This document shows, piece after piece, positions 8,389 through 64,000 of a DNA stretch of 64,000 nt. The DNA comes from an uncultured Muribaculaceae bacterium (GTDB taxonomy: Bacteria > Bacteroidota > Bacteroidia > Bacteroidales > Muribaculaceae). The DNA is taken from contig CANQQE010000007.1 in NCBI GenBank assembly GCA_947625935.1, forward strand, positions 13,724-77,723. The letters are read 5' to 3'. The position numbers and the translations under genes are program-made. Position 1 is the first letter of the stretch. Each line of letters starts with the position of its first letter. The notes under the pieces are model-generated. The model searched no databases. It saw only the letters and a program-made list of their open reading frames with translations, and had not been told where the DNA came from.

Positions 8389-8417
8389 ATTTTAATATAA
8401 AAGCACACACCTGTCAA
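8389..8417 (-). promoter_or_regulatory. Promoter for CDS 7240..8340
   Basis: TTGACA - 17 nt - TAAAAT. The -35 box overlaps the relaxase stop codon. Confidence 0.55.
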
Positions 8418-21117: not shown

Positions 21118-21156
21118 GGTTTTGATATTCCTCCTCCAGATTCAAAGTCTTTCTAA

Positions 21157-21185
21157 ATTATATAATAAAAATAATAAAAAATCAA
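21157..21185 (-). promoter_or_regulatory. Promoter for the 19678..21117 plus hydrolase operon
   Basis: TTGATT - 17 nt - TATAAT. Confidence 0.55.
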
Positions 21186-21299
21186 CAATTTTAATAAAAA
21201 TAAATATGAAAAAAGGCATCTGCCGGTCATGCCGTACAAATGCCATTTTTCTGATAGCCAATCTGCGCAGATGGTTATGTATGATAACCAGTCGATCTC

Positions 21300-28417: not shown

Positions 28418-28446
28418 AGTATAACATAATCCGCTAAATAAATCAA
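28418..28446 (-). promoter_or_regulatory. Promoter for the VirB3-like/VirB4-like/VirB6-like operon
   Basis: TTGATT - 17 nt - TATACT, with an A/T-rich UP-like tract upstream. Confidence 0.55.
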
Positions 28447-28470
28447 TAAAAATAATAAAAATATATAAAA

Positions 28471-28503
28471 GGACTCAAATTTAATAAAAATAAACTTGAG
28501 TCC
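28471..28503 (-). terminator. Weak terminator-like hairpin after CDS 28512..29396
   Basis: 8-bp stem GGACTCAA / TTGAGTCC with a 17-nt AT loop, T-rich downstream. Confidence 0.4.
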
Positions 28504-41197: not shown

Positions 41198-42460
41198 TTA
41201 AAGCCCCCGCAGGTCTTCCGTGCTGCGCTCTTCATCCGAGGAAACAAGCAGATATAACCCGTCCCGGTTCAGACATCTGGAATAACTGGAATCCAGGTAC
41301 AGCACGGGTACGAAAGCGTCTTCGCCGAAAGTTTTCTGGATCATCTTGATCAGCTTCGGATAGAGCGAATCCTGCACCGACGTCGCCCCACCGCCATATA
41401 CGTAGATCACTTCGGCAAATGCGCCATTGCGCTCAAGCACTCCGGAAAATTCTCTGGCAACTTCATCCGTGAAGATATTGATCTCGGCCTCGACCACCTG
41501 GAACACTTCTTTGCCGCGGGAACGCATCAGCGGCTTATCTTTCGCGTCGATGATCCATTCCGTTAATTTCTTTCTGGAATCGAACGGCCTGCCCATCTGC
41601 GCCAGCTGCGCCTGCGCCTCATCCATCACGGAACCGTAGCCTTTATTTAAGGTCTTGGACGTATCCGGATTAAACCGCATATCCTGGTAAATCGGGAAAT
41701 TTACAGTGCCTTCGCCGATGTCGATACCGATAATGCCGCCGGCATCCATGATATCTTTCACGGTAATACCCTCAGGCAGAGAGATCCCTGCATCCGTAGC
41801 CATCTTTTTGACCAGGGCATTCATAAATCTTTCGCCTTTTGACGCAATAGCGAACTGAGCGCTCGCCCCTTCAGGCGCCACGATGATTTCTGTAATGTGA
41901 ATATCCACCCGAATCACGTTCTGGAAATTATGGATGCGGACCAAATGCGGTTTCGCCTTATAGTTCCTGGGAACAGTGTTCTTGCTGCGCTTATACTCAG
42001 CAATCGGCAGGGAGACGGCCATCTGCGCCTGCACGGTCAGCGTCTCGTCCTTTGCGGGAAGCGTGCTGCCGTGCGTATCGTAATAGTCCTTTAACGCTTT
42101 TCCGGCCAAAATAGAGAGCGTCAGAATCGCGGACAGCTCTGTCTCGGACTTAGAACGCTGGCTCTCGCGAAGATTAAACTCCTGCAGGCTCTTTCCGGAG
42201 CGAACCGCCCTCTTGCCTACATAGAAACGCATTTCTTTATCGTCGATGAGCGGCGAATCGAACGACACCTCTAACTTATTATAGATATCCTCGAACTCAG
42301 CTTTGACCGCCGAAGGCTCGGTGATCCTTACGTCCGCGGAATTCGTGATAACGGCCGCCGCACTAGGCATGTCGACAGCCCTGGCCTTGTCGTCCAGATC
42401 GGGATTCTTGACCAGTGCCTTCACATACCCGTTGCCAATGTCAAGACCTGCTTTTAACAT
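41198..42460 (-). CDS. parM: ParM/Alp-like actin-family partition ATPase
   Basis: MLKAGLDIGNGYVKAL (phosphate 1), GIDIGEGTVNFP (phosphate 2) and VIYVYGGGA (adenosine). AGGAGG SD. Confidence 0.8.
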   Translation of the reverse strand: MLKAGLDIGNGYVKALVKNPDLDDKARAVDMPSAAAVITNSADVRITEPSAVKAEFEDIYNKLEVSFDSPLIDDKEMRFYVGKRAVRSGKSLQEFNLRESQRSKSETELSAILTLSILAGKALKDYYDTHGSTLPAKDETLTVQAQMAVSLPIAEYKRSKNTVPRNYKAKPHLVRIHNFQNVIRVDIHITEIIVAPEGASAQFAIASKGERFMNALVKKMATDAGISLPEGITVKDIMDAGGIIGIDIGEGTVNFPIYQDMRFNPDTSKTLNKGYGSVMDEAQAQLAQMGRPFDSRKKLTEWIIDAKDKPLMRSRGKEVFQVVEAEINIFTDEVAREFSGVLERNGAFAEVIYVYGGGATSVQDSLYPKLIKMIQKTFGEDAFVPVLYLDSSYSRCLNRDGLYLLVSSDEERSTEDLRGL

Positions 42461-43351: not shown

Positions 43352-43380
43352 AGTATAACACAAAAATATACAGCAGTCAA
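43352..43380 (-). promoter_or_regulatory. Promoter for the RHH/acidic-protein operon
   Basis: TTGACT - 17 nt - TATACT, with an A/T tract immediately upstream. Confidence 0.6.
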
Positions 43381-43412
43381 TAAAAATAATAAAAAAATTT
43401 AAAAATATTATT

Positions 43413-43441
43413 AAAAATGCAGGATATAAAATATCCTGCAT
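43413..43441 (-). terminator. Terminator after CDS 43448..45865 (bidirectional shape)
   Basis: Stem ATGCAGGATAT / ATATCCTGCAT flanked by A5 and T7 runs. Confidence 0.8.
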
Positions 43442-50051: not shown

Positions 50052-51224
50052 ATGTTATTAAATGATACTGGAATCAAGGTAATCGAGAGTGATATGCAGA
50101 ACGACGGGCTGATCCCTTTCCTGCTCGGCGCACCCGGAATCGGAAAGTCCAGCGTGGTACGCGCGATCTGCGAGAAGAACAACTGGGGCTTCCATGAGCT
50201 TCTCTGCAATCAGATCACCATGCCTGCCGACCTGACCGGCGCAAGGACCATCTCTGTCAAAGATGACCAGGGCGTTGACCACTTCAGGCAAACGTTCTTC
50301 CCGCATGCCGTTATTCAGGATGCGATCGACGAGGCGGAAGCAAATCCCAGCAAGACCGTAGTTCTCTTCCTGGATGAGATCAACAGGACTTCATCTCATG
50401 TAACTTCTGCCCTGCTGACCTTTATCACCGCGAGAACGATCGGTACCGAGAAGCTGCCCATGAACATCAAGCTGGTCGCTGCCGGAAACGACGATGGCAA
50501 CGTCATTGCTCTGGACCAGGCATCCATCACCAGATTCATGCTCAGACGCTGCGAGCCTGACGCACAGGTATTCTTAGGTCTCGGCAAGATCCATCCCGTG
50601 ATCGAAGACCTGCTCAAGCAGCAGCCTGCACTGATCTACCAGATCCACAATGCTGTCGTGGACGAGAACTCTGAAGAGATTTACTCTGAGGAAGAGAACG
50701 ACTTCCAGCAGATCGCGACACCCAGAACCATCATGGGCCTGAACAAGGCGCTGCTGAACAATTCCAAGATGGTGATGCAGATGGACGAAGCTGCCCTGAA
50801 GGAATATGTATCCGGCTTTACCGGCGATACCCTCTTTACCGAGGCTGTCGTTACGGCGATCATGGCCAACAAGTACAAACTCGCTACACCTGTCGGCATC
50901 GAAGCGCCTGCGAAGCCCGCATGCCTTGACATGCTGATGAATGCAAGCTCTATCACCGATATTCAGTCCATGGTGGCCGGCATGTCCGATGAGGACCGCT
51001 CTGCGGCAATGCTGTACATGCTGTACGACAAGAACACGAACTATACCAACGTAATGCCTGAGGTACTCCACGCTTACGGGAAGAACATGCTTCTCGGCGA
51101 CGGCCAGAGCAAGCTCACCACGATCATCAACAGCGGCGAGTTCAACCATGATGCGTACGACGTGATCATGAACGCCGACACGCAGCTGACAAACGTGTTC
51201 AAAATGGTCTACGGCGGGGTCTAA
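50052..51224 (+). CDS. MoxR/AAA_5-type AAA+ ATPase
   Basis: Walker A FLLGAPGIGKSSVVRAI. Walker B VVLFLDEINRTSSHVTSALL. AGGAGG SD. Followed by a VWA partner gene. Confidence 0.75.
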   Translation: MLLNDTGIKVIESDMQNDGLIPFLLGAPGIGKSSVVRAICEKNNWGFHELLCNQITMPADLTGARTISVKDDQGVDHFRQTFFPHAVIQDAIDEAEANPSKTVVLFLDEINRTSSHVTSALLTFITARTIGTEKLPMNIKLVAAGNDDGNVIALDQASITRFMLRRCEPDAQVFLGLGKIHPVIEDLLKQQPALIYQIHNAVVDENSEEIYSEEENDFQQIATPRTIMGLNKALLNNSKMVMQMDEAALKEYVSGFTGDTLFTEAVVTAIMANKYKLATPVGIEAPAKPACLDMLMNASSITDIQSMVAGMSDEDRSAAMLYMLYDKNTNYTNVMPEVLHAYGKNMLLGDGQSKLTTIINSGEFNHDAYDVIMNADTQLTNVFKMVYGGV

Positions 51225-51261: not shown

Positions 51262-52851
51262 ATGCCTACAATAACGACGATTGCAAGCAAGCTGTCCGCT
51301 GCAAATTCCCAGCTGCAGACGCTGCAGTTATATCCCCAGGATGCTTCCGTCGATATCAACACGATGCTGAACGACATCCTGGCAAAGATGTGGACGGACA
51401 TCACTTCCGGCCAGCTGACACAGGACGAGATGGATCTGTGCATCGGCACGTTCGCCAACGCTATCATCACAAACCTGGTCGACCGGCAGGCACAGACAGA
51501 TCTGGACCTGCTGTTCATGAACACCCTGGCGTGCTACAGCGCGAACAAATTCGACGCGGTATATTTAAGCCAGATCCTCAGAGCGAACAAGATGCCGGAA
51601 CCCAGTTCCAAGTGCATCTATGTGGCAGGCGACGTGACGGACGCTGCGAAGAATTACGATATCAACAGGGACGCCCAGTCAAAATCAGCGCTCCTTGCGA
51701 CGCTCGGCGCGTTTTACAACAATGCGTCGGCAATGTATGTGCTGATGGACGACGACTTGGAATTAGATAATTTCAAGAACCTGATCAATCCGATGCTTCA
51801 GGCAAAAGGGCTCGACCCGTTCCCTGCGGACTTTAATCTGCAGGCCAAGATCAGCGACGGCGTGATTTTACGTCCGGATTACAAACTGAGCGACCAATCC
51901 AACGATCCGGATTCCAACGCAAGGATCGTGATGAGCGTGCTCACGAACGCATATGCGAACCAGATCCTGCCCACCAGGACGATCGACGCGCTCATTCCGC
52001 AGACGGTCGTGTTCTTTAACGCCAGAAAGCTCGCCCGCGCCACCAGTACTGAGATCATGAACGCCAAGAGCGACATCGGCAAGCTGGCCGGGATCGACAA
52101 GGCGCGTATCCTGAGCTTCAGCCAGATGGCCAGCCTTTCCCAGGTCGCGAAGATCATAAACAAGATGGCCGTCATGAACAACCAGCTCAACAACATCCTG
52201 GCCAAATCAGCACTCTCCCAGGCCACCGGTAAATTCGTGATCCGGCATATCAACATGAAGCGCGTGCAGAAGAAATTGGAACGCGCCCTAAAAGCCATGA
52301 AAGATGTAGCGGTGTCCAAGAATCCCAGAGAACATGAGTACGACACGTACCAGAGGCCGAACCGCCGCGATCCTGAGAACTGGGACCTGCCCGGCACGGT
52401 GACGGACTTCGGCTACTGCCCCGACATTCATCTTTATGTTGATACGTCAGGCAGTATCAGCCAGAAAGATTACGAAGATTCCGTAGCAATGCTTGTGGAT
52501 ATTGCAAAAAAGTTCAACTGCGATATCTATTTCAATTCATTCACGACGGATATTTCGCAGGAAACGCTGGTCAAGTGCCGGGACAAGTCCAAACACCAGA
52601 TCCAGAAAGCTATCGAGAAGATTCCGAAACTGAGCGGCGGAACCACGATCGACCAGGTATGGCAGTATATCAACTGTTCCAAGAAAAACCGCAGACAGTT
52701 AAGCGTGCTGATCTCCGACTTTTACGTGGATGTTCCCAGGTATATCAAACACCCTGACCACCTGTTCTACATTCCTACGAAAGATACGAGCGTCAAATAC
52801 GCCGAAGAGTTTGCGAACAAGCTGCCGAATCCCTGGCGGGTATTATTTTAA
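51262..52851 (+). CDS. VWA-domain protein (MIDAS DxSGS), partner of the MoxR ATPase
   Basis: C-terminal IHLYVDTSGSISQKDYEDSV is a MIDAS motif. AAGGAGG SD. Terminator lies directly downstream. Confidence 0.7.
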   Translation: MPTITTIASKLSAANSQLQTLQLYPQDASVDINTMLNDILAKMWTDITSGQLTQDEMDLCIGTFANAIITNLVDRQAQTDLDLLFMNTLACYSANKFDAVYLSQILRANKMPEPSSKCIYVAGDVTDAAKNYDINRDAQSKSALLATLGAFYNNASAMYVLMDDDLELDNFKNLINPMLQAKGLDPFPADFNLQAKISDGVILRPDYKLSDQSNDPDSNARIVMSVLTNAYANQILPTRTIDALIPQTVVFFNARKLARATSTEIMNAKSDIGKLAGIDKARILSFSQMASLSQVAKIINKMAVMNNQLNNILAKSALSQATGKFVIRHINMKRVQKKLERALKAMKDVAVSKNPREHEYDTYQRPNRRDPENWDLPGTVTDFGYCPDIHLYVDTSGSISQKDYEDSVAMLVDIAKKFNCDIYFNSFTTDISQETLVKCRDKSKHQIQKAIEKIPKLSGGTTIDQVWQYINCSKKNRRQLSVLISDFYVDVPRYIKHPDHLFYIPTKDTSVKYAEEFANKLPNPWRVLF

Positions 52852-53107: not shown

Positions 53108-54391
53108 ATGGACAAATTATTGGAACAAGTTTTCTCAGACCAGAAGATCTGGGAACAGGCGCTGTCCGACGGCATCGAGAAAAAGATTAAAAAAGAAGTC
53201 CTGATCAGCTATTCTGACCCGGCATACCGGGAAGAGATCAAGCAGCAGATCGCGGAACATGCCTATCAGGTCGTCCCGCCACACGAGGCGCAAATCCCGA
53301 AAGACGACGGCACCATGAGGACTGTCTATGCCAACGAAGCAAAAGACCGCGTCCTGATGACCGTGATCAACAATACACTGTTCAAACTCTGTCCGGAAAT
53401 GATACACCCGGCCTGCAAATCCTATCAGACCGGCATCGGCTGCGGCATGGTGGCGCGAAATGTCGTAAAAGATCTCAAACGACTGCAGATCCACGGCGAT
53501 AAACTCGGCTACAAGATCGACCTGTCCAAATATTTTGACAGCGTGCCGATCGAATACATCGAGCAGGCGTTCAAAGATATCGAGGCCAAAGTCGGAAAAT
53601 CAGCCGTCCTGGACCTGTTATGGGACTACTATCACGATAACCGGCTGTACGACCTTGACAAACATATCTTTGAGAAATACACGAGCCTCAGACAAGGCTG
53701 TGCCGTAGCGGCGTTTCTGGCCGACGTGGTATTGTACGATATTGATGCCCAGATAAGTGCAATGCCCGCTGTTTCTTATTATAGATACAGCGACGACATC
53801 TTGATATTAGGAGAAGCAAAAGATGCGGACGAAGCCTTCGGCATTTTAAGCGCCATGCTGGAAGAACGGTCGTTAAAGCTGAACCCCAAAAAAGTCGAGC
53901 AGATCGACGCTGACCATTGGTTCACGTTTTTAGGATTTTCGATCCGGAACGACCAGATCTCGCTCTCCAAAAAACGGACGAAGAACCTTCAAAAAGTAAT
54001 TCAGGAGCTGACTCTTAACGCAAAAACAAAAACCGTAGAATCAGCTGCCAGAAAAGTCTACCGGTATCTGTACGGGCAGTCGAATGTTCCATACAGTTAC
54101 TGCGAAGGCATACTCTCAGTGATCAACAACAAGCACGACATCATGATGATAGATACTTACATCATGGACTGCATCAGGGCCTGCGCGACACAGAAAACAA
54201 AAATCGGCGGGCTCGGCTATAACAAAACAGGAAAAGACGGCGTGATCGTGCGCGGCCTCGGCCGGAACGTGAAACAGAACAAGATCAAACTGCCGGAGAT
54301 CCCGTATACGACCATGTCGTTCATGCAGTCGCTCTTTAATTCCGATAAAGACGCCTATCATACTTACGCGAAATCACTGATATTAACTTAA
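53108..54391 (+). CDS. Reverse transcriptase (stand-alone; retron/DRT/group-II-like palm, no maturase or endonuclease tail)
   Basis: RT motifs IPKDDGTMRTVY, GYKIDLSKYFDSV, LRQGCAVAAFLADVVL, YYRYSDDILILG, LKLNPKKVEQI and FTFLGFSI. AAGGAG SD. Confidence 0.85.
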   Translation: MDKLLEQVFSDQKIWEQALSDGIEKKIKKEVLISYSDPAYREEIKQQIAEHAYQVVPPHEAQIPKDDGTMRTVYANEAKDRVLMTVINNTLFKLCPEMIHPACKSYQTGIGCGMVARNVVKDLKRLQIHGDKLGYKIDLSKYFDSVPIEYIEQAFKDIEAKVGKSAVLDLLWDYYHDNRLYDLDKHIFEKYTSLRQGCAVAAFLADVVLYDIDAQISAMPAVSYYRYSDDILILGEAKDADEAFGILSAMLEERSLKLNPKKVEQIDADHWFTFLGFSIRNDQISLSKKRTKNLQKVIQELTLNAKTKTVESAARKVYRYLYGQSNVPYSYCEGILSVINNKHDIMMIDTYIMDCIRACATQKTKIGGLGYNKTGKDGVIVRGLGRNVKQNKIKLPEIPYTTMSFMQSLFNSDKDAYHTYAKSLILT

Positions 54392-54413: not shown

Positions 54414-55037
54414 ATGCGGTATTTGAATAAACAGCTCAACGGCGCGGATACCCGCAACAACTTCGTCAGATCTATGGATCTGTACGGCGGAACGAGCTTT
54501 GAACAGGCATTAGAAAATTACAACAAAGAGTGGTTTTCCAGCAAACGCAAGCAGTATCTGAACCAGGCATTCAAGCTGGTATTGGAGAAACAGCTGTTCT
54601 GGCCTGCCAGAGTGATCCCTGAGATGCTTGACGAGATCTATGTCAACGAATCAGACCGCTACGATGCGAAAAAGATGGCCCAGGATATCGACAACTTGAA
54701 ATCCAAGTACCAGATCTGGGCGTCGAAGCGCAAGAACCAGCCGGTAACGAGCAATGATATCTTAAAAGAGATCAAGAGTTTCGAGATGAAATACCGGTAC
54801 TCCTGCCCCGAATCCTTTAAGTTTTACTGGATGAACAACGGAGCATTTATTACGTTATCTTATGGAATAAAATTCGAGGATCTGGTCTTTCCCGGCATGG
54901 ACCAGGCGCAGAGCCTATCAAAGTTACAGGCGATGGGCCTCGAAGTACTGACCGACCATGACCACGACGTCGATGAAAGGCTGTTCAAGCTCTGCTATTT
55001 TCTTTACAGCAAAAAAGCGATTGCAGCCGAAGCATAA
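54414..55037 (+). CDS. Hypothetical protein co-transcribed with the RT
   Basis: 207 aa. AAGGAGG SD lies 22 nt after the RT stop. No motif recognised. Confidence 0.7.
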   Translation: MRYLNKQLNGADTRNNFVRSMDLYGGTSFEQALENYNKEWFSSKRKQYLNQAFKLVLEKQLFWPARVIPEMLDEIYVNESDRYDAKKMAQDIDNLKSKYQIWASKRKNQPVTSNDILKEIKSFEMKYRYSCPESFKFYWMNNGAFITLSYGIKFEDLVFPGMDQAQSLSKLQAMGLEVLTDHDHDVDERLFKLCYFLYSKKAIAAEA

Positions 55038-55099
55038 CAAAATTTTTTATGATAAGAACTGCGCCGAACACACGGCGAAACGGCAAGCGAGACGGCCGC

Positions 55100-55145
55100 G
55101 CTCAAAGCCCCGCGAGGATGTAAATGGCGCGCGGGGGCTTTGAGC
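55100..55145 (+). other. Strong GC-rich hairpin without a U-tract at the end of the RT operon and start of the ORF-free region
   Basis: GCTCAAAGCCCC (55100-55111) pairs with GGGGCTTTGAGC (55134-55145). After a one-nt bulge (G55133), 55112-55114 pairs with 55130-55132 for 3 more bp. Confidence 0.6.
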
Positions 55146-56786
55146 AGGTACAAAATGCGTAGAATATATAAATCCATGATTTAGCGAGCCTAACGAGGGG
55201 AGTGAGACCACCTCTCCGGCTGGAACCCGCTTTACGCATTTTCGTTACACTCAGAGCAATGACTATCGGAATGTGTCATGGCCGCAAGCTGCCAGAAAAT
55301 TTCAGCCCGGCACAGGGCTGACAGCGGAAATGAGCGCACTCCCCCAGATCCGTAGGACTGGGGGAGTTAAACGAAGAGTAAGAACAGGGTTTTTTTTTAA
55401 AACGGGGTTGACGAGGGGACTAAATGTCACTTGAGAAACCGCATATGAGCGGTCTTCAAGGATCCATGAGAAGACGCGTCGGCGAACCAGCTGGCACCGC
55501 GGTATCAAGGAGGTTCTCCGAGGCAGGGTCTCGAAGATCGTATGATCACGATCATTCCGGATGACCCGTAAGTCCAGAGAGGCTGGAATGCCACGACCGT
55601 GCAGCACAGTGCACTATAAGTGAAAGTCCACCCAGTCGTATGAGCCCGGTGAATTCAGGATCATTATCAAAACTCCCTCTGGGATTACAGCGTAATTAGC
55701 TGCCTGGAAGGCGAGCTGATCATGAGCTTGAACCTTGGACCAGGATGAATTCACTCGCAGGTCACCGTTCAGCTGGAGGAAAGATGATTTGGACGCCGTC
55801 AATCCTTGGCGCCAATGAATCATGATCACGTACGTAAATTCCAGAAGGCCTGAACCAGAGCTCCATGAACCATGGAATTTCGAGTCGGCAAAGCCACCGG
55901 CAATGCGAATCTGATCAAAACGTTCGCGATGAAACAGGCATGCCTGATGCAGGCGACACTGCCGTAGCTGTCGAATGAACTCGGATGGTGATGCTTCCGG
56001 TAGGACCCGTACTCACAATTGTACAACCAGGACAATCCGGATGAATTCCAGGGATGCCGTTTATGATCATGTTTGATATCAAAAGACAAAGCATTCGTAG
56101 AAGCCGTCGGCTGGATCCGCAATCATGAATCATGTGACTTATAGTCGACTAGGCTGCCCGCGATAGCGAACTTCAACGCACCAGTGTCAATCCGCCAGGC
56201 TTAATCATGATCGAAATGATGTCCAGAACAACTGGATAAACACATGCTGCGGGACACAGGTCCGAGCAGGTGATGGATCCTGGCTGGGATACCTGGCTTA
56301 GGCGCCTTTCTTCGAGCAACAAATGCTGCCATATGAAGAGCATCAGTTACGATCGGAATCAGACGACCTGAAGAAATGACTGATCAGTCAGCTGTTTCGG
56401 AACCTGATCCAATCAAATGCCTCAGGTGCGTGCGATCAAAGTTTCGAGACACGTGGAATAACTTCAGAAATGTTGGAATATTTGTGAGGACCATGCAATG
56501 GATCTGGGATTAACGCGCGCCAGCACTGTGAAATATTCCATGTGGCCTGTAACAATTCCAGACCGGTTGTTGAAGACGAGGATCATCCATCCGGATACGA
56601 TCAGTCGCTCCTCCCTGCGGTACCATGGAACTTCGCATCCACGGTCCGTCTCCAAGGACGTCCATGAAAACCGGCTGCCCAATGATGAGTCGAGTTCCGA
56701 ATGCTCAGCCTGACCCGTTTAAACTTTTCGCTATGAAACAACGATTATCTGAATGTGCTGTGTTCAGACCCGCTGTCACTTTTTTT
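55146..56786 (+). ncRNA. Candidate very large structured non-coding RNA, or an extremely long structured leader of the Clp-like/helicase operon
   Basis: The 1.77-kb gap has no ORF over 101 aa and no SD-led ORF. Its base composition is coding-like, unlike the AT-rich spacers elsewhere. It contains several exact helices and repeated sequence modules (see findings). It ends in T7 at 56780-56786. The strand is inferred from flanking gene polarity only. Confidence 0.4.
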
Positions 56787-56806
56787 CAAATAGGAGGTAA
56801 ACAGTT

Positions 56807-58537
56807 ATGCCCTTAGATTTCAGACAAAATCAGAACAACGCTCCGGGAACGATGGGGCCGCCCCCTGGTGCCGTCACGCCCAATCAGGCCATGCAGGCAG
56901 TACAGAACTCTGCGACCGAAGAGCTGATGATCAACTACAACAAGAAATTCGCGAACGGCATGCCCGCCAAATACCGCGACAAAGAGATCTTCACGGTTAT
57001 CTCGCAGCTCATGATGAGCCAGAAATCCTGTTCTTTATTGGTCGGAGCGCCCGGTGTCGGCAAGACCAAGATCGTTGAGGAGATCGCCCGCCTGATCGCG
57101 GCGAAATCGCCTTACACCAATACGCTCAATGAATATACAGTCTACGAACTGCCGCTGACGAACCTGATGTCCGGCACAAGCTACCGGGGCGACTTGGAGC
57201 TGCGCGTGAAGGAGCTGGTCGAGTACTGCGAGAACAACAAAGTGATCCTGTTCATTGACGAGATCCATCAGCTGATCGACGGCCAGGCAAGCATGTCGGG
57301 CATCGCGCAGATGCTGAAGCCGGCTATGGCCAGAGGCTCGATCAAGATCATCGGCGCGACAACCACGCAGGAGTCCAAGAACTTATTGGACGATCCTGCT
57401 TTCAACCGCAGGTTCAACAAAGTCCAGGTATGCGAACTCTCTATTGAACAAACCGTGGACATCATCCAGACCGTGTATATTCCGAAAATGGGAACGTTTT
57501 ACGGCTGCTCCTTTGCAAATAACCTGGCAAAAATCGTCGTTGAGGCTGCTGAGCGGTCCAAAACAATCACCTGCCACCGCCCCGACAACGCGATCACAAT
57601 GCTTGACCAGATCTGCGCAAACACCGTCCTCACCAGGAACTATAACATAGCCACCTGCCAGGATCCGGCCGTCAAGCAGACGCTGCAGGCTACGCCGTGC
57701 GTCGTGAACGCCAACCATGTGGAACTGTTCAACCGTGAAGCCAATTTCACGCTGCCTGACAGCTTTGACAGCTTGAAATCCAAGCTGCTCTATCAGGACA
57801 AAGCGGTCGACGCACTCTATGAGAACTTAAAAGAGTTCGTCCAGATCAACGAACTGTTTCCTGAGAAAAAGCCGCTCGTGCTGAAAATTTTCGGCGCGGA
57901 CAAGACAGGCAAAACGACGCTGGCAAAGCTGGCGGCCGAGATGATCGACGAATCTCCGGTATATCTCGATCTGGCCGATTATTCCGACGCACCCAGCCTG
58001 AACCGTATCATCGGCTCTCCCATGGGCTATGTCGGATCGGATTCCAAGAAAGAAATGCCGTTCGACATTATCGAGTCTTCGCCGAGAAAAGTGATCATCT
58101 TAGACAATCTGGATTGCTGTCACGCCGTCATCCACGACTTCTTTGAGTCCGCGATCGACACGGCGCTGATCAAGTATGCCGACAACCGGATGATCGACAT
58201 CTCGAAGTGCATTATCATCATTACGAGCCATATGGAGAAAAAGACCGCCACGATCGGACTGGTCGTTCCTGAAGCAAAGACCGCGAAGAACGAGATCACT
58301 ATGGAAATACTCACGGACAACGAGCTCGTCGACGGCACAAAGACGATCATGCGCCAGCTTATTGCAGGCATGAAATCGTCCCATACAAAGTATTCCAGCC
58401 TTCCGGATGAATTGGACTTGACTGCGGAAGACGAAAAAGGCATTATAAATGTTGGTGATATGACGCGGACAGCGAAAAATGTGATCCTGCGCTATATCAA
58501 CCAGCCTGTAACAGCGGCCGCGGCAGAGAAAAAATAA
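56807..58537 (+). CDS. ClpA/ClpB-like double-AAA+ ATPase, second paralogue (D2 Walker B degenerate)
   Basis: D1 has LLVGAPGVGKTKIVEEIA, VILFIDEIHQL and IIGATTTQESKNLLDDPAFNRRF. D2 has KIFGADKTGKTTLAKL, but the Walker B position reads VIILDNLD. AGGAGG SD. Confidence 0.8.
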   Translation: MPLDFRQNQNNAPGTMGPPPGAVTPNQAMQAVQNSATEELMINYNKKFANGMPAKYRDKEIFTVISQLMMSQKSCSLLVGAPGVGKTKIVEEIARLIAAKSPYTNTLNEYTVYELPLTNLMSGTSYRGDLELRVKELVEYCENNKVILFIDEIHQLIDGQASMSGIAQMLKPAMARGSIKIIGATTTQESKNLLDDPAFNRRFNKVQVCELSIEQTVDIIQTVYIPKMGTFYGCSFANNLAKIVVEAAERSKTITCHRPDNAITMLDQICANTVLTRNYNIATCQDPAVKQTLQATPCVVNANHVELFNREANFTLPDSFDSLKSKLLYQDKAVDALYENLKEFVQINELFPEKKPLVLKIFGADKTGKTTLAKLAAEMIDESPVYLDLADYSDAPSLNRIIGSPMGYVGSDSKKEMPFDIIESSPRKVIILDNLDCCHAVIHDFFESAIDTALIKYADNRMIDISKCIIIITSHMEKKTATIGLVVPEAKTAKNEITMEILTDNELVDGTKTIMRQLIAGMKSSHTKYSSLPDELDLTAEDEKGIINVGDMTRTAKNVILRYINQPVTAAAAEKK

Positions 58538-58579
58538 ATCTGCCGCCCCGCGATTCGCATAAAAGGAGGAAAAAAAGTT

Positions 58580-60217
58580 ATGCCACTTATTTTGGAAGAC
58601 ACCGCTGCCGAAAAACAGCCAAACGGCGGCACAGTTCCTGCAGCGCTCCAGTACAGCCCGAAAGATTACAGTTCGATCTTAACAGGCAACGGAGTCAACC
58701 AGGGTCTTCTGCGCAGCATTGTAACGGCCGGAGGCTCTGCAAATGTTCCCAACCATATCATCCAGACCATTGATGACGAACGGTACAATGCAAAAAACCA
58801 TGCGTATCATGTTCATGACGACGTGCGCTCTTACACCGTGCTGCACCAGGACATCTCGCTCTGCGGCGGACTTAGCTCAAACGCTTCGGCCGTCCCCGCC
58901 CACCTGCTCAGAGACCATTTCATGACACTGGAGGACGCAAACGGCAATACCGTAACATACAGATCAAGGCTGTTCCTGAAAAAGATCTATGTCTATAAGG
59001 CAGTCAACAACTATGTACTGGGAAGCTATATCCTGATCGCCGCAGACGAGGCAAACCCGTTCAACTTTGTGATCGCCTCAGAAGATGCGCTCTTCACAAA
59101 AGGACAGAACGGCCTGATCACCAAGCTCTACAAAGAAGTGGAGGGCCAGGTCATCGCAAAATGCCGGAAGAACGGCTTTACGGTCAAGATCAATGACGCC
59201 GCGATGCTCGCCCAGGACGAAGAAAGCCGCACGATGTACGAGCTTATCATGTCCGAACTGGAAATCATCAAGACGCAGGGCCTGCTCAAGCAGACGCTGC
59301 AGAGTCTTTCCGCGAGCAGCTATGATGCGCTGAGCTACGCCAACGGCATCCTGAATCTGATCAACCTGCCGTTCGCGCTCTATCAGACCGATGTCATTGA
59401 TGTCGTAAACAGCAGATCGGCAGATGAAGCAGTAATGCTCAAGAACGCGAACATGTCGCTCTCTCTTGCTGACACGCTGAGCGCGATGCAAAACCGCAGC
59501 AGCATGGTGATCCCAGAGCTTACCGGCAAACATTACACCACGAACCAGATCCATCTGACGACCGAACAGATCGCTGCCATTGAGGCCGACTCGAAGATCA
59601 CGATCATAGCGGCCGGAGCGGGGACCGGAAAATCATCCAGCATCATCCATAGGCTTCACTTCATGGAGGAGAACGGCTGCAACATGCACCAGACCTATGT
59701 ACTGAGCTTTACAAAAGCAGCCGCGGGACATATCAAGAAGCTGTTCAAGGCGTGCAAATCCTGTACGATTGCAGATTTTACGCACAGCTTTGTGAACGTG
59801 ATATTAGACGACGGCTCCGGCACGCACGTGGACATCATCGCGCACTCTGACTTCGTTCAGAAATTAAGGATCCAGATCGACGACCTGGTGAACGCGAACA
59901 TTTTACAGAAGGCAACAGAAGACGCGCTGCTCAAGTTCCTGCAAGCATGTGCCAACATCGAAACCCAGCAGAACACACTGCTCAACATGCTGGACGCTTC
60001 TTTGAATCCCGAAGCAATGAACATCTTATCGGTGTTAAAGATGATGCGCGTTTCTTCTTTGGAACTGGATCCCATTATTTTCCACACGCAGCTTTCGGTG
60101 CTTACACCAAACATCGAGCACATCGTTATCGACGAAAGCCAGGACTCGAACCGGCTGGAATTCCTGACGATGCTCAAGATGGCAATGCTGCATGATATCA
60201 GTATCTACGTAGTGGGT
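58580..60217 (+). CDS. UvrD/PcrA-like superfamily-1 helicase, exon 1 (N-terminal unknown domain plus motifs Q, I, Ia, II)
   Basis: IIAAGAGTGKSSSI (motif I), VLSFTKAAAGHI (Ia) and HIVIDESQDSN (II). The reading frame runs into intron sequence after ...ISIYVVG and stops at 60224-60226. Confidence 0.8.
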
Positions 60218-61390
60218 AAGGCATAATTGCCCACTTTAAACCCTACTAACTGCGGGAAACCGACATGAAAAAATCATGTAAAACATACCTGCTACCGCGC
60301 TGTTTTAGAAATAGAACAGGCAGCACAACGGATAACGCCGTTGGGATGGTAAAAACGCAGGATCATGGCGGCAATCACGAAAACGCAGCCAGACAGCATA
60401 ACGTAAAGACGATGCTGTAAGGTTCATCGACTATCGAAAGCTATAAATCCATAAGAGTCAAGCGATTGACGGGGTTGAAAATAAGGGTAGGTGAAAACCT
60501 ACCGCGAAGCAAGTAGAGTAGCGCCCGGCGGCATGACCGGGTCAGTCTTCGGCTGAGATTAGGCCGGAATAAGCCTGTTAAAGCGAAATGACGGGCTTGC
60601 ATGTCTTAACGGATTTAATATTATTCGGTAAAATAAGACATACAAGATGATATAGTCAAAAATTTGGAGAACGGAGGGACCTCATGCAGACCTCAACACA
60701 GGTAAACAGAAAACATACAGTGAATGAATCTTATTTTAACAATATCGACACGCAGGAAAAGGCATACTGGCTCGGTTTTATCTGGGCCGACGGCAGCATC
60801 TCAAAAACGAGCAAACGGTCAAGCGGGCCAAACAGACTGCGAGTTACACAAAAAGATGCAGAATCTGACCATCTTAAAAAATTCAAAACCGCGATTGGTG
60901 CTGATAACGAAATTAAATTCGTTGACAAAGGGAACGGCCATATTATTGCGCAGCTTGACATCAACTCCCGCTTATTGTGTGAGTCGCTGCAGAAATTAGG
61001 ATATGGGCCAAAAAATGTCAGAGTTCATATTCCAAAGATCCGAAAAAACCTGCTGCACCACTTCATACGAGGTTATTTTGACGGCGACGGATGTTTATCG
61101 GTATACGAACAAAAAGTCAAAAAGTATATGATAAACAAACAGGAGTGGTCGCTGACAGGAAACAAAATCCTCATGCAGGAAATACAAGATCTGCTGACAG
61201 TTTCGGCACAAGTCACACCGACAGTTGCTTTAAAAGATTACAAAAAATCACCTGCGACCGCCTCGCTCCGCTACGGTAAAAACATCGATATTATACTGCT
61301 GTATGTTTATCTTTACAAAAATGCTGCTGTTTATCTACACACAAAGCACAATAAATTCATAGAATTTTTCTCCAGATCCGCGTCAAAAAG
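60218..61390 (+). mobile_element. Group I intron (1173 nt) interrupting the helicase gene between motifs II and III
   Basis: The 5' exon ends in U (60217). P1 forms between GUGGGU (60212-60217) and GCCCAC (60229-60234), with the U.G wobble at the splice site. The intron ends in G (61390). Joining the exons restores YVVG|DCAQTLYEFRDAD (motif III). The intron carries a LAGLIDADG ORF. Confidence 0.75.
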
Positions 61391-61442
61391 GATTGTGCCC
61401 AGACGCTCTATGAATTCAGGGATGCCGACCCGCGCATCCTGA
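60684..61442 (+). CDS. LAGLIDADG homing endonuclease (double-motif), intron-encoded
   Basis: Motifs YWLGFIWADGSI and IRGYFDGDGCLS. GGAGGG SD. The stop codon lies 52 nt past the predicted 3' splice site. Confidence 0.85.
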   Translation: MQTSTQVNRKHTVNESYFNNIDTQEKAYWLGFIWADGSISKTSKRSSGPNRLRVTQKDAESDHLKKFKTAIGADNEIKFVDKGNGHIIAQLDINSRLLCESLQKLGYGPKNVRVHIPKIRKNLLHHFIRGYFDGDGCLSVYEQKVKKYMINKQEWSLTGNKILMQEIQDLLTVSAQVTPTVALKDYKKSPATASLRYGKNIDIILLYVYLYKNAAVYLHTKHNKFIEFFSRSASKRIVPRRSMNSGMPTRAS

Positions 61443-62401
61443 ACAACTTGACGAAACTGTTCAACACGTTCGACCTTACGATCAACCATCGGTCCACCCA
61501 GATCATTCTGGACGTGGCCAACCTGATCAGCAACACGATGAACATGCACAAAACAACGCTCAGGTCCAACAACCTGACGCAGCCTATCACCAAAGCCGAG
61601 ATCGACAAGACCATTACGATCAACACTTATAATAAAGTGACCGATCCGGATACCCAGCTCATTCTGGACAACTACCTGGAAAAACATCTCGGCAACGCGA
61701 ACGGCGAAACGATCGCTGTCATCGCCCGCTCCGGAAACGATGTGGTGCATCTGTATGAGTATTTGGAAACTAAATACGGCTCCAAATACGAAATCCAGAA
61801 CATCACGTCCCAGCGGCGGAACGACATCACGATCCTGTCTGCCATCGGCAACAACCTGCAGACGCTTGTCAACAACACGGCGATCCAGAGCTGGAATGAT
61901 TTCGAGAGCATGATCACGACCGAAAACCTCAGGCTCAATGCAAACAGCCGCCGCAACCGTACCAACGGCACTATGCCCAGCGTCAATAAAGTAACGATGG
62001 AATGGCTGGCGGAGCAGCAGGCCGACGCGGCCAATATTATCGCGGAATTAAACGATCCGAACCAGCAGGCCGCCCGCGTACGCAAACTCCAGATGTCCCT
62101 GCTCGATACGCAGACCAAGAAGAACAATCTGCTGCAGAGAGTCATGGACGCGAAGAATGCAAAACTCAAAGAGAAAAAGGCAGACATCGTGGTCTGCACC
62201 GTGCATGGCGTCAAAGGCCTGGAATACGATCATGTGGCATGTTTCATCAACACCGAAGCTGAAAAATCTTATTCCGTAACGGATGAGAACAAACGTATCG
62301 CGTACGTAGCGCTCACCAGAGCAAAACAGACGGAATGCGTATTCTGCACCAGGGAAAAGCTCGTAAAGGATTTCGAGGCTTATTACCAGGCGCAGCCGTA
62401 A
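61391..62401 (+). CDS. UvrD/PcrA-like helicase, exon 2 (motifs III-VI)
   Basis: In frame with ORF 61448..62401. DCAQTLYEFRDAD (III), TINHRSTQIILDVAN (IV), VCTVHGVKGLEYDHV (V) and RIAYVALTRAKQ (VI). Terminator lies downstream. Confidence 0.8.
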   Translation, partial: DCAQTLYEFRDADPRILNNLTKLFNTFDLTINHRSTQIILDVANLISNTMNMHKTTLRSNNLTQPITKAEIDKTITINTYNKVTDPDTQLILDNYLEKHLGNANGETIAVIARSGNDVVHLYEYLETKYGSKYEIQNITSQRRNDITILSAIGNNLQTLVNNTAIQSWNDFESMITTENLRLNANSRRNRTNGTMPSVNKVTMEWLAEQQADAANIIAELNDPNQQAARVRKLQMSLLDTQTKKNNLLQRVMDAKNAKLKEKKADIVVCTVHGVKGLEYDHVACFINTEAEKSYSVTDENKRIAYVALTRAKQTECVFCTREKLVKDFEAYYQAQP

Positions 62402-62411
62402 CAACTGACCT

Positions 62412-62447
62412 CAGCGGGAGAGCTGAACTGCTCTCCTGCTGTTTTTT
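62412..62447 (+). terminator. Terminator after the helicase gene
   Basis: 12-bp stem CAGCGGGAGAGC / GCTCTCCTGCTG (one mismatch) followed by T6. Confidence 0.8.
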
Positions 62448-62469
62448 AAGACAACATAGGAGTGAAGAT

Positions 62470-62790
62470 ATGCCGAAAAACGACGACCCTTATATTCGAT
62501 TAAATGGCATCCAGGGCGACAGCCTGGAAGATTACAGTACGGTCTTTGCCGAAATTCAGAAGATCTTGAAAAAAGACGTCCCGCAATACGATCCGCAGCA
62601 CATGTACATCGAAAAACAGTCATTCCACCCTGATGACTGGTATTTATGGTCAGTAGCGGCCCGAAAACGGAGCGACCCGGACAAGTACGGTGTGTGGACG
62701 GCCAACCTAAGCCTCAGCGGCCTGTATAACGGTCATTACGACGTTCCTGTTACCGAAGTAACAGGGTTTTTGAATGAAAAAAGGAGGTGA
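62470..62790 (+). CDS. Hypothetical protein (106 aa)
   Basis: ORF track gives 62335, but that start lies inside the helicase gene and its terminator. ATG 62470 follows AGGAGTGAAG. Confidence 0.6.
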   Translation: MPKNDDPYIRLNGIQGDSLEDYSTVFAEIQKILKKDVPQYDPQHMYIEKQSFHPDDWYLWSVAARKRSDPDKYGVWTANLSLSGLYNGHYDVPVTEVTGFLNEKRR

Positions 62791-62794
62791 CATT

Positions 62795-63649
62795 ATGCCC
62801 GACATTGAACAGAAACCGGAATTTACCGGTTTCATAGGCAATTTCGTTCTCACGCCTGAAAATTATTACTCTGACGAGGCCAACAAGCGTTTTCTGTCAA
62901 ACTCGCTGTTTAAATCATTATACGGCTATCCCGCCCATCCGCATCCATGCCAGGCAGCAGCTGTTTACGGCGGAAAAGAAACAACAGAGGCGCTGCTGGT
63001 CGGCTCTTATATGGACGCGTGGTTCGAGAGTACAAATGCTTTCGAGGATTTCTGCCGGGAACATGAGAACCAGATCTATACAAAATCCGGCAAGACCAAG
63101 TATAAGTTCATCATCGACGCAGATAATGCGATCAACCGTGTCAGAAAAGACAAGACGTTCATGCGTTTCATGGGCGGCAGCCACCAGACCGTATTGACCG
63201 GAACGATCGCGGGGCATCCGTTTAAGATCAAGATGGACGCGTACCACCCTGGTGAAATGATCGTAGACCTCAAATACGTGAAATCGTCGATGCCGGTATG
63301 GAACGAAGTCTTGAAACAGCGTGTCAGCTTTATCGAAGATTACGGTTACACGATCCAAGGTGCGATCTATCAGGAAGTCGAATACCAGAATTCCGGAAAG
63401 AAACTGCCGTTCTATATTGCCTATGTGACAAAAGACGCGGAACCGGATTTCGGCGTGGTACAGATCCCTCAGGAACTTCTGGACGAGGCCCTTGAATTCG
63501 TAAAGATCAACCTGACCGCAAAACCCTACCAGTCGATCCTGATGGCGCCCAAAGCCTGCGGACGGCGCTCCTGCCCTTACTGCAGGAAGAACAAAAAGCT
63601 CTCCGGCCCGATGGACTGGAAAACATTTACAGAGTACATTGCATCTTAA
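62795..63649 (+). CDS. PD-(D/E)XK nuclease (RecE/exonuclease-VIII-like or Cas4-like with a Cys cluster)
   Basis: ATG 62795 follows AAAGGAGG. Core KMDAYHPGEMIVDLKYVKS (D...D/ExK). One N-terminal Cys (HPCQAA) plus C-terminal CGRRSCPYC suggests an Fe-S or Zn cluster. Confidence 0.6.
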   Translation: MPDIEQKPEFTGFIGNFVLTPENYYSDEANKRFLSNSLFKSLYGYPAHPHPCQAAAVYGGKETTEALLVGSYMDAWFESTNAFEDFCREHENQIYTKSGKTKYKFIIDADNAINRVRKDKTFMRFMGGSHQTVLTGTIAGHPFKIKMDAYHPGEMIVDLKYVKSSMPVWNEVLKQRVSFIEDYGYTIQGAIYQEVEYQNSGKKLPFYIAYVTKDAEPDFGVVQIPQELLDEALEFVKINLTAKPYQSILMAPKACGRRSCPYCRKNKKLSGPMDWKTFTEYIAS

Positions 63650-63657
63650 ACCAGAAT

Positions 63658-63693
63658 GGGGCTGCCGCGACACACTCCGGCGGCTCCGTTTTT
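63658..63693 (+). terminator. Terminator after the nuclease gene
   Basis: 10-bp stem (two G.U pairs) GGGGCTGCCG / CGGCGGCTCC, followed by G and then T5. Confidence 0.7.
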
Positions 63694-63803
63694 AAAAACG
63701 AAAAAAGTTCTTGCCAAAAGATAACGGATATGATATTCTATTTTTGGTATTAAAAATAATAAAATTATATATCGTAAATTTCACAGAAAGGAGGCGCCCT
63801 TTT

Positions 63804-64000
63804 TGGAGACACTTCAGCGTATCATTGTCGAAGAAACGCAGAAGTATGTCGCCACCCTGAATGTTGGAGATGATGATTATTTACAGATGGAAGAAGATCT
63901 GATGAAACGAATAAAAGTCAGGATCACTCAGACGAACCAGGTGAGGAATCAAGGAGACGCTCGTCTGTCAATGCCCAAGTACCTGTCTTTCGGCCAGATC
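63804..64000 (+). CDS. Hypothetical protein, 5' part only (runs off the window)
   Basis: TTG start 8 nt after AAAGGAGG. The frame stays open to the window end (LETLQRIIVEETQKYVATLNVGDDDY...). Confidence 0.4.

Follow-up and report, generated by a model that had tools for sequence, protein, structure and literature searches.

At positions 55038-56806 of the 64-kb stretch of contig CANQQE010000007.1 analyzed here (hereafter the window), 1769 nt pass without a substantial open reading frame (ORF), which raises the question of what, other than protein, this gap encodes. A preliminary description of the sequence proposed a giant structured RNA in the manner of GOLLD, ROOL, or OLE. We consider it probable that the gap is instead the noncoding RNA (ncRNA) template region of a neighboring UG27-type reverse transcriptase (RT), composed of two tandem units, one of them giant. 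The parts of this reading differ in strength. That the gap is the ncRNA region of the RT is very likely, and a two-unit architecture is likely; a long complementary DNA (cDNA) product of the giant unit, suggested by analogy with characterized systems, is a tentative proposal.

A noncoding gap conserved beside a UG27-class reverse transcriptase

Two ORFs upstream of the gap lies an RT gene (53108-54391, plus strand) that the preliminary description overlooked, although its mention of retron msr/msd, and hence of RT-linked RNAs, pointed in the right direction. The 427-aa product bears a YSDD active site within a YRYSDDIL motif and matches the PADLOC model RT_UG27 over residues 2-424 of 427 (E=1.7e-153), as well as Pfam RVT_1 (E=5e-23). 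Its scores fell below the cutoffs of the NCBIfam models for group II introns (TIGR04416, 103.9 bits, cutoff 300) and retron_St85 (61.8 bits, cutoff 235) and of the Drt2 family (41.9 bits, cutoff 390), and Rfam returned no group II intron RNA.

Mestre et al. (2022, PMC9226505) defined UG27, a class 2 UG/Abi RT that occurs chiefly in phages of the gut. Its gene is accompanied by those of two proteins of unassigned function and by an extended intergenic region for which a structured ncRNA was predicted. According to the Minerva preprint (dated 2026-09-24, bioRxiv 10.64898/2026.09.22.753630; hereafter the preprint), this region is an array of sequence-diverse units of ~135-167 nt, each of which combines a basal hairpin with a pseudoknot and a main hairpin. 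The RT and both conserved accessory proteins, sORF (~150 aa) and bORF (~330 aa), each of which is needed for cDNA synthesis, copy the central hairpin into 50-100-nt single-stranded DNA. Copying is initiated at the AUC of AUCNNNNNNNUANAG (AUCN7UANAG) and terminates after UUYA, and the preprint states the biological role of the cDNAs as unknown. As a control, we located five copies of the canonical initiation motif, 150-180 nt apart, immediately downstream of the RT in IMG/VR locus L005, and we measured canonical central hairpins at 43-99 nt. The central hairpins of 65 canonical units could not be aligned, so that MAFFT and RNAalifold yielded no consensus structure for these units and no covariance model was built.

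The gap itself shows no sign of coding. Its longest overlapping ORF is 101 aa and antisense (55302-55607, minus strand, GTG start), as the preliminary description had it, and its composition is coding-like, as also claimed there, at the level of GC content (0.47-0.53, equal to the flanking genes). With codon statistics learned from 32 long window ORFs, we obtained a negative mean log-likelihood in each of the six frames (-0.39 to -0.62 per codon), compared with +0.38 to +0.58 for the neighboring genes in frame; the period-3 signal was 2.7, against 19-37 for those neighbors. These scores, negative in all frames, together with the weak periodicity, indicate that the gap is genuinely noncoding. 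TGA occurs at about twice its expectation, and one frame contains 19 TGA stops against 1 TAA and 4 TAG, an excess that arises because the palindromes TGATCA and TCATGA are frequent in the gap. Stop-codon recoding is ruled out, as all three stop codons occur in every frame and coding signal in none; the absence of coding signal also rules out chains of small ATGA-coupled ORFs.

Further contigs, up to 138 kb long, carry the RT and are 100% identical to the window across the 6-9 kb compared. More informative are nine relatives with RTs 52-62% identical (L048, L050, and L132-L138), which together with the window form our comparison set of ten syntenic loci, referred to here as the clade. All share one gene order: a MoxR-type AAA+ ATPase, a 527-532-aa VWA-like protein, the RT, a 203-221-aa protein, an ORF-free gap of 1.7-2.6 kb, a ClpA/B-like gene, and UvrD. 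Because ten syntenic loci keep it, the gap is a conserved feature and not a decayed gene; an intact ORF in homologous loci, which the preliminary description had named as a contrary outcome, is found in none of the ten, divergent as they are. Conservation of the gap does not extend to most of its sequence. Between relatives with RTs ~60% identical its central part is unalignable, and alignment by blastn is limited to two stretches, one of ~90 nt situated ~250-390 nt from the gap start and the other comprising the final ~80 nt. A blastn search of the gap against 50,697 phage records gave no match; a tblastn search of phages with the RT reached at best 44.5% identity and no clade member, and the relatives recovered by scanning metagenomes with the RT alignment were all of canonical type (<=49% identity). 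L048 and L049, the one pair of near-identical contigs available (L048 8184-9184), differ by 9 events in 7.8 kb, 7 of which fall in the 2.1-kb gap and 2 in 5.7 kb of flank. This pair hints that the gap evolves faster than its flanks.

The RT is followed directly, in all ten loci, by a gene of ~203-221 aa, which in the window encodes a 207-aa accessory protein particular to this RT clade (54414-55037, plus strand). Homologues with 53-62% identity were found by blastp in the seven loci tested, the protein matched no family in the libraries scanned, and its own family comprises only 5 clusters among 1.84 billion representative proteins. By hhalign this family has a weak similarity to the C-terminal portion of canonical UG27 bORF (E=7.5e-4, probability 25%, 91 columns), and its similarity to sORF is not significant (E=0.05). 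A single-sequence AlphaFold model of the protein was unusable (pLDDT 43). In two canonical loci, an sORF-like sequence is fused to the RT C-terminus (L058 4995, 538 aa; L069 943, 536 aa; blastp 38% identity over 89 aa).

Bracket elements at the two ends of the gap

Conserved sequence and structure are confined to approximately the first 340 nt and the last 100 nt of the gap. A hidden Markov model (HMM) of the canonical 3' motif (ATC-N7-TANAG-N-AATGTGCC) matched clade gaps only near the head and near the tail. A second HMM, built from the ten clade tails, recovered each tail plus one weaker, same-strand copy at the head of 8 of the 10 gaps, and neither model matched inside any of the ten gap bodies. 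Every match lies on the plus strand, which is the strand of the RT and of the gap elements described below. Upstream of each 3' motif stands a small hairpin, the loop of which can pair with the TGTGC core of the motif. We read this pairing as the basal hairpin and pseudoknot of the preprint because eleven canonical units have the same geometry; their pseudoknots are 100% paired, and compensatory changes occur in 4 of 5 pairs.

The two hairpin-motif pairs delimit the units that we designate A and B. Unit B, the giant one (~55302-56790, ~1.49 kb), opens with the basal hairpin UCAGCCC-GGCACA-GGGCUGA (55302-55321; pair probability 0.97), which shows compensatory changes in the 7 loci aligned; its stem, 55302-55308/55315-55321, includes the complementarity noted in the preliminary description at 55303-55308/55315-55320. 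The loop GGCACA (55309-55314) pairs with TGTGCT (UGUGCU in the RNA, 56754-56759), 1.44 kb downstream, and the two partners change together across the ten loci: GGCACA/TGTGCT occurs in three loci and GGCGCA/TGCGCC in two, alongside GGTACA/TGTACT, GACACA/TGTGTT, and GACACG/TGTGTC. For the basal stem and pseudoknot combined, 94.5% of alignment cells pair, a level reached by 0 of 500 shuffles (81.7% in shuffles), and 7 of 11 pairs change on both sides. The pseudoknot alone pairs in 95% of cells, with 3 of 6 pairs compensatory, against 23-45% when the register is slid.

Downstream of the basal hairpin, unit B carries a TATAAT-like box, then a strong conserved hairpin, ACUCCCCCAG...CUGGGGGAGU (55338-55367; pair probability 0.98), and then UUAAA. 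This hairpin and the UUAAA, one of only two parts of the gap that can be aligned, form the presumed 5' boundary of the template; the stem was reported earlier as 55339-55346/55359-55366 and is present as 55338-55347/55358-55367. RNAalifold on seven loci predicted 17 pairs in this region, 9 of them with compensatory changes. At the other end, the 3' bracket (56704-56764) reads ...AUUUUC...GAAAC...AUC(56747-56749)-UG-AAUGUGCUG(56752-56760); it matches the clade tail HMM at E=1.7e-9, and the same element ends all ten gaps. Beyond it, the T7 run noted previously (56780-56786) and the Shine-Dalgarno sequence AGGAGG precede the ClpA/B-like gene (56780-56806). A T-rich tail followed by AGGAG is kept in relatives, and this stretch may include the 3' end of the ncRNA.

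Unit A (~55062-55290) is much shorter, ~230 nt, and folds stably as a whole (55058-55285; plus strand z=-2.59, minus strand z=-1.94). It begins with the basal hairpin CGCCG-AACACA-CGGCG (55062-55077; pair probability 0.95), whose loop ACACA (55068-55072) pairs with TGTGU (55272-55276); in the 5 loci with both partners identified, 100% of cells are paired and 4 of 5 pairs are compensatory. Next comes the strong hairpin with which the preliminary description had the gap open (55100-55145). It has 12-nt perfect arms and a folding energy of -32.6 kcal/mol, and its CUCCCC...GGGGAG stem is conserved in the clade, with equivalents near the gap start in the six other loci inspected for it (L048, L050, and L132-L135). 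The complementarity recorded at 55152-55161/55233-55242 is part of a long hairpin (55152-55242) with a 12-bp closing stem (55152-55163/55231-55242; pair probability 0.95) that encloses GGGGAGUGA (55197-55205). The motif (U)GGGGAGUGA recurs in the gap heads of relatives, 3' of the CUCCCC...GGGGAG hairpin, and might form an alternative structure by pairing with the CUCCCC arm. Toward the end of unit A lies its 3' motif, AUCGGAAUGUGUCA (55265-55278), the counterpart of the canonical ...UANAG-N-AAUGUGCC; the clade tail HMM matches 55238-55280 at E=0.1, and relatives have TAAAGAAATGTGCC or TATAGCAATGCACC at this position.

Folding and palindrome content of the unit B insert

Between the brackets of unit B lies an insert of ~1.37 kb (55372-56745) that is noncoding, hypervariable, rich in palindromes, and not stably folded, and that we presume to be the template of the RT. 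In nine 150-nt windows across 55440-56720, folding energies ranged from z -2.19 to +1.14 relative to dinucleotide shuffles, with means of -0.54 (plus strand) and -0.34 (minus strand). With Markov controls, five clade bodies scored -0.3 to -0.7 and RT coding sequence -0.88, compared with -1.6 to -2.5 for four canonical UG27 arrays, in which the RT strand folds better. The complementarities listed within the body in the preliminary description are present: 55836-55843/55873-55880, read directly from the sequence, and 56474-56483/56531-56540. Most of these in-body complementarities are palindrome-driven or chance pairings and not conserved helices. Comparison of homologues, proposed in the preliminary description as a test of structure, had a divided outcome: pairs covary in the bracket elements, and the body is unalignable and shows no conserved helices.

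The two perfect 12-nt palindromes described earlier are both present, the second within the 14-mer TGACTGATCAGTCA at 56377, and they belong to a far larger pattern. The gap contains 61 maximal palindromes of at least 6 nt against 27.1 +/- 4.8 in Markov-1 simulations (z=7.0), and 24 of at least 8 nt against 6.9 expected. When the window is divided into 1-kb bins, the two covering 55001-57000 hold 34 and 31 palindromes and the 62 others 5-24 each. Density in the insert is 40 palindromes of at least 6 nt per kb, compared with 14 per kb in the remaining window. Each of the ten loci shows the excess (z = 5.1-10.5; 32-46 per kb vs 12-19 per kb in flanks), and pooling places it in the inserts (43.3 per kb) more than in the heads (22.1 per kb). 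The sequences are also diverse: 34-48 of the 64 hexamer palindromes occur per gap, and in the seven loci simulated, where 20-28 are expected, the number exceeds all 200 simulations. No such excess was seen in 49 distinct canonical UG27 arrays (observed/expected 0.84, mean z -0.65). Some canonical arrays are palindrome-depleted, the opposite of the clade (L065 6263-7100, 4 vs 19.7 expected, z=-3.8; also L054 and L100).

The enrichment has a characteristic form. Perfect inverted repeats with arms of at least 4 nt are enriched 3.3-fold at spacer 0, 1.7-fold at spacer 1, 1.1-fold at 2, and 1.3- to 1.6-fold at 3-7, falling to ~1 beyond, a profile showing that the palindrome excess does not stem from hairpins. 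Palindromic 4-mers extend to 6 nt in 48% of cases and 6-mers to 8 nt in 39%, and 8-mers extend to 10 nt in 21%, chance being 25%; palindromic 4-mers in total are not enriched in the gap. The palindromes could have formed double-stranded sites within hairpin stems, a possibility that is ruled out by the count of same-core pairs within 150 nt (66 vs 71 +/- 7.5): same-sequence palindromes are not paired at this range, and local hairpins therefore contain no such double-stranded sites. Candidate periodic markers in the gap (GGATGA/CCGGAT, ATGATC/TGATCA/TCATGA, CCRGAAG, and ATC-N-AATG) showed no regular spacing, and a search for tandem repeats found a single trivial 13-nt repeat. Nor does any direct or inverted repeat of at least 24 nt link the gap to the rest of the window, and thus there is no target like that of a diversity-generating retroelement and no obvious complementary target within it.

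Genomic setting, competing explanations, and implications

The genes around the RT and the gap are constant in the clade. Directly 5' of the RT, in the same order in all ten loci, stand the MoxR-type AAA+ ATPase (50052-51224, plus strand; Pfam match) and the VWA-like protein (in the window 529 aa with a weak Pfam VWA-domain match, 51262-52851, plus strand), which are possibly further components of the RT system. Directly 3' of the gap, again in all ten, is the gene for a double AAA+ protein of ClpA/ClpB type (56807-58537, plus strand; NCBIfam ClpA E=4e-69, below the family cutoff), a constant neighbor of the gap. The UvrD-family helicase gene that follows is split in the window, its N-terminal part (58580-60226) being separated from its C-terminal part (61448-62401) by a LAGLIDADG endonuclease ORF (60684-61442). 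The 457 nt beside that ORF (60227-60683) are likewise ORF-free, so that the earlier statement that all other spacers measure 360 nt or less is inexact. An intact 891-912-aa UvrD gene is present in L048, L050, L132, L134, and L138; the split looks like an intron- or intein-type insertion, and Rfam reported no intron there at E<=1.

Elsewhere in the window, at 2789-47116, the minus strand encodes a MobL relaxase (8414-10762), a type IA topoisomerase (30742-32907), an actin-like ALP partition protein (41198-42460), a T-Q ester/SpaA adhesin (36981-41063), a 1556-aa lysozyme-domain protein (14992-19662), and a second ClpB-like ATPase (5265-7088). No capsid, portal, or terminase family was matched among the ~30 window ORFs scanned. 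Such gene content suggests a conjugative plasmid more than a phage; most naturally, the element is read as a conjugative plasmid or phage-plasmid of large size from a Gram-positive host. An AT-rich element (...TCAATAAAAATAATAAAAA...) is repeated in the intergenic spacers at 21151-21209, 28418-28499, 43352-43426, and 63736-63764 and is probably a promoter or regulatory motif. Outside the gap, hexamer palindromes are scarce (879 in total vs 1187 expected), and seven of them, AAGCTT, ATGCAT, ATTAAT, GCGCGC, CTCGAG, CCCGGG, and CTTAAG, are absent from these 62 kb at expectations of 5-16. This avoidance is likely the footprint of host restriction-modification systems. In the same regions (1-55037 and 56807-64000), ATCGAT occurs 9 times vs 37 expected, and GATC is over-represented at 9.1 per kb.

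Against this background, the giant structured RNA of the preliminary description retains part of its case. The gap is long, noncoding, and conserved as a gap, with coding-like composition; it stays ORF-free throughout the ten syntenic loci, its transcription into a functional RNA is most likely, and a covarying long-range pairing joins its two ends. A single global fold akin to GOLLD, ROOL, or OLE is nonetheless very improbable. Rfam, suggested there as a check, matched no family, either at the gathering threshold over the whole window or at E<=10 over the gap; the central 1.3 kb has neither excess folding energy nor strand asymmetry, its sequence and helices are unconserved between relatives, and its same-sequence palindromes are unpaired within 150 nt. 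More likely than one giant fold are two tandem UG27-type units on the RT strand. Hardly credible is a decayed or recoded protein gene, for which the coding-like composition and the surplus of TGA, so marked in one frame, might speak: period-3 signal is lacking, codon scores are negative in every frame, all ten divergent loci are ORF-free, the flanking genes use the standard code, and the TGA excess comes from TGATCA and TCATGA. An ordinary UG27 array, of about ten ~150-nt units diverged beyond the searches used, would fit the length of the gap, which equals 10-12 canonical units. The preprint itself allows that some UG27 clades have structured units that its covariance models miss, and our own full-unit alignment yielded no consensus. 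We consider such an array unlikely, given that canonical arrays fold at z -1.6 to -2.5 and the five clade bodies at -0.3 to -0.7, that both 3'-motif HMMs find the head and tail copies and none inside the ten bodies, and that k-mer and gapped-dyad searches gave no periodic motif.

The palindromes call for an explanation of their own. One is that RT-made DNA from the insert, bearing many type II sites, acts as a decoy that soaks up host restriction endonucleases, an idea prompted by the likeness of the insert to a cloning polylinker. The excess is indeed specific to perfect palindromes that have no spacer and measure 6-8 nt, as type II sites do, each gap carries more of the 64 hexamers than expected, and the strong site avoidance in the rest of the window implies that the element is under restriction pressure. 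Yet 6 of the 7 avoided hexamers are absent from the gap too, and hexamer counts in the gap track those in the genome (Spearman 0.43, p=4e-4; vs the observed/expected ratio 0.22, p=0.08), from which it follows that the gap carries tolerated sites and not targeted ones. Moreover, palindromes not duplicated within 150 nt would provide no double-stranded sites in a folded single strand, and a decoy made after entry arrives late; we regard this role as distinctly improbable. Alternatively, the palindromes could be a mutational by-product of snap-back or template switching as the RT rewrites a fast-evolving template. The hypervariable bodies, the concentration of L048/L049 differences in the gap (7 of 9), and the 1.7-fold enrichment of inverted repeats with a one-nucleotide spacer are in keeping with this process, which we still think improbable: extension of palindromes shows a length optimum, rising above the 25% chance level and then dropping below it, 4-mer palindromes in total are not enriched, and the canonical arrays of related RTs are free of the excess. 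Selection for self-complementarity and a template-switching by-product are the two readings that remain for the palindromes, and the length optimum and the clean canonical arrays favor selection.

Several observations weigh against a UG27-type reading of the gap. The exact AUCN7UANAG is absent from it, and the rest of the window contains the pattern 12 times, in line with chance. Before AATG, at both head and tail, relatives have TATAG or TAAAG and the window TTATC or ATCGG; at the tail the window thus has UUAUC in place of UAUAG/UAAAG. Canonical sORF and bORF (L005 queries, blastp) match 79 and 73 ORFs of canonical loci and 0 in clade loci, and the 207-aa protein is only weakly bORF-like. Regarding the brackets, the covariation segments were picked by eye, the unit B pseudoknot has one mismatch in two loci, unit A partners are identifiable in 5 of 10 loci only, and a spacing of 1.4 kb between pseudoknot partners is without precedent in the UG27 family. 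Finally, the surroundings are conjugative-plasmid-like, whereas described UG27 systems occur mostly in phages.

Comparison with known systems places the locus nearest to the UG27 arrays. It shares with them the RT family, a long noncoding region 3' on the RT strand, a basal-hairpin loop in a covarying pseudoknot with AAUGUGC beside a UANAG-like motif, and a template that is hypervariable between relatives. It differs in having two units, with 3'-motif copies at head and tail only, rather than 3-7 or more; in the size of unit B, ~1.49 kb against the published 135-167 nt, unit A (~230 nt) being closer to the norm; in an unfolded, palindrome-rich unit B template where the canonical one is a 43-99-nt hairpin; and in the missing exact AUCN7UANAG of the window copy. 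A single 207-aa protein appears to take the place of sORF and bORF, the MoxR, VWA, and ClpA-like genes are constant neighbors, and the host element is plasmid-like rather than a phage. The form of unit B, in which ~1.4 kb of unfolded sequence replaces a short hairpin template, appears undescribed, and figure S34 of the preprint could already show this clade.

DRT2 (UG2) and other class 2 UG/Abi systems likewise combine a class 2 UG RT with an adjacent structured ncRNA that juxtaposes the template ends, and these systems are reported, in work cited in the preprint, to make long or concatemeric cDNA. Here, in contrast, the ncRNA lies downstream of the RT (upstream in DRT2), the RT scores far under the Drt2 cutoff, and nothing at the locus suggests rolling-circle synthesis or a cDNA-created ORF. 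As in retrons, where an msr-msd RNA serves this purpose, an RT would copy part of an adjacent structured ncRNA into multicopy single-stranded DNA; the differences are that this RT falls outside the retron type, that a retron RNA is not detected by Rfam, and that the template would be more than 10 times the length of an msd. GOLLD, ROOL, and OLE are also long noncoding regions on mobile elements; unlike them, this gap is linked to an RT, matches nothing in Rfam, and shows neither a conserved global fold nor excess stability. Diversity-generating retroelements resemble the locus in joining an RT to a small accessory protein and a noncoding template, with hypervariability; the window contains no template/variable repeat pair of at least 24 nt, and its RT belongs to a different family.

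We infer that the gap is transcribed and reverse transcribed, and a mechanism can be proposed for unit B. The loop of the basal hairpin would pair with the 3' motif (AAUGUGC) to form a pseudoknot that brings the template ends together. By analogy with tested UG27 systems, the RT, with the 207-aa protein, would start just 5' of the 3' motif and copy the insert toward the 5' bracket. The predicted product would be a kilobase-long minus-sense cDNA in place of the 50-100-nt hairpins. If selection maintains the palindromes, their abundance in an unfolded strand would favor pairing between molecules over internal folding or would provide sites for dimeric proteins. We can picture a lineage of UG27 RTs on large conjugative-plasmid-like elements that has exchanged the usual array of short hairpin templates for one kilobase template, which is selected to be unfolded and yet to hold dozens of different self-complementary 6-8-mers. 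Its RNA or cDNA would be a multivalent, self-associating nucleic acid, because each palindrome pairs only with its own copy on another molecule, or a platform for dimeric DNA-binding proteins. This last proposal is speculative, and we consider it doubtful. Such an RT product and mode of action, if true, have not been described for any retroelement.

UG27 systems are widespread, and their cDNA products have been demonstrated only recently. The clade described here offers a natural contrast to them, with the same RT family and brackets and a template ten times longer whose sequence is statistically extreme. Should the palindromes be selected, they would be the first concrete sequence clue to the partners of UG27 cDNAs and would point to duplex-forming or dimer-recognized elements and not to target complementarity. 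The giant unit further suggests that hairpin, pseudoknot, and 3' motif form a portable cassette that can present arbitrary kilobase inserts to the RT, which would be of interest for producing long single-stranded DNA in cells. The plasmid-like context, in turn, would broaden the known ecological range of the UG27 family.

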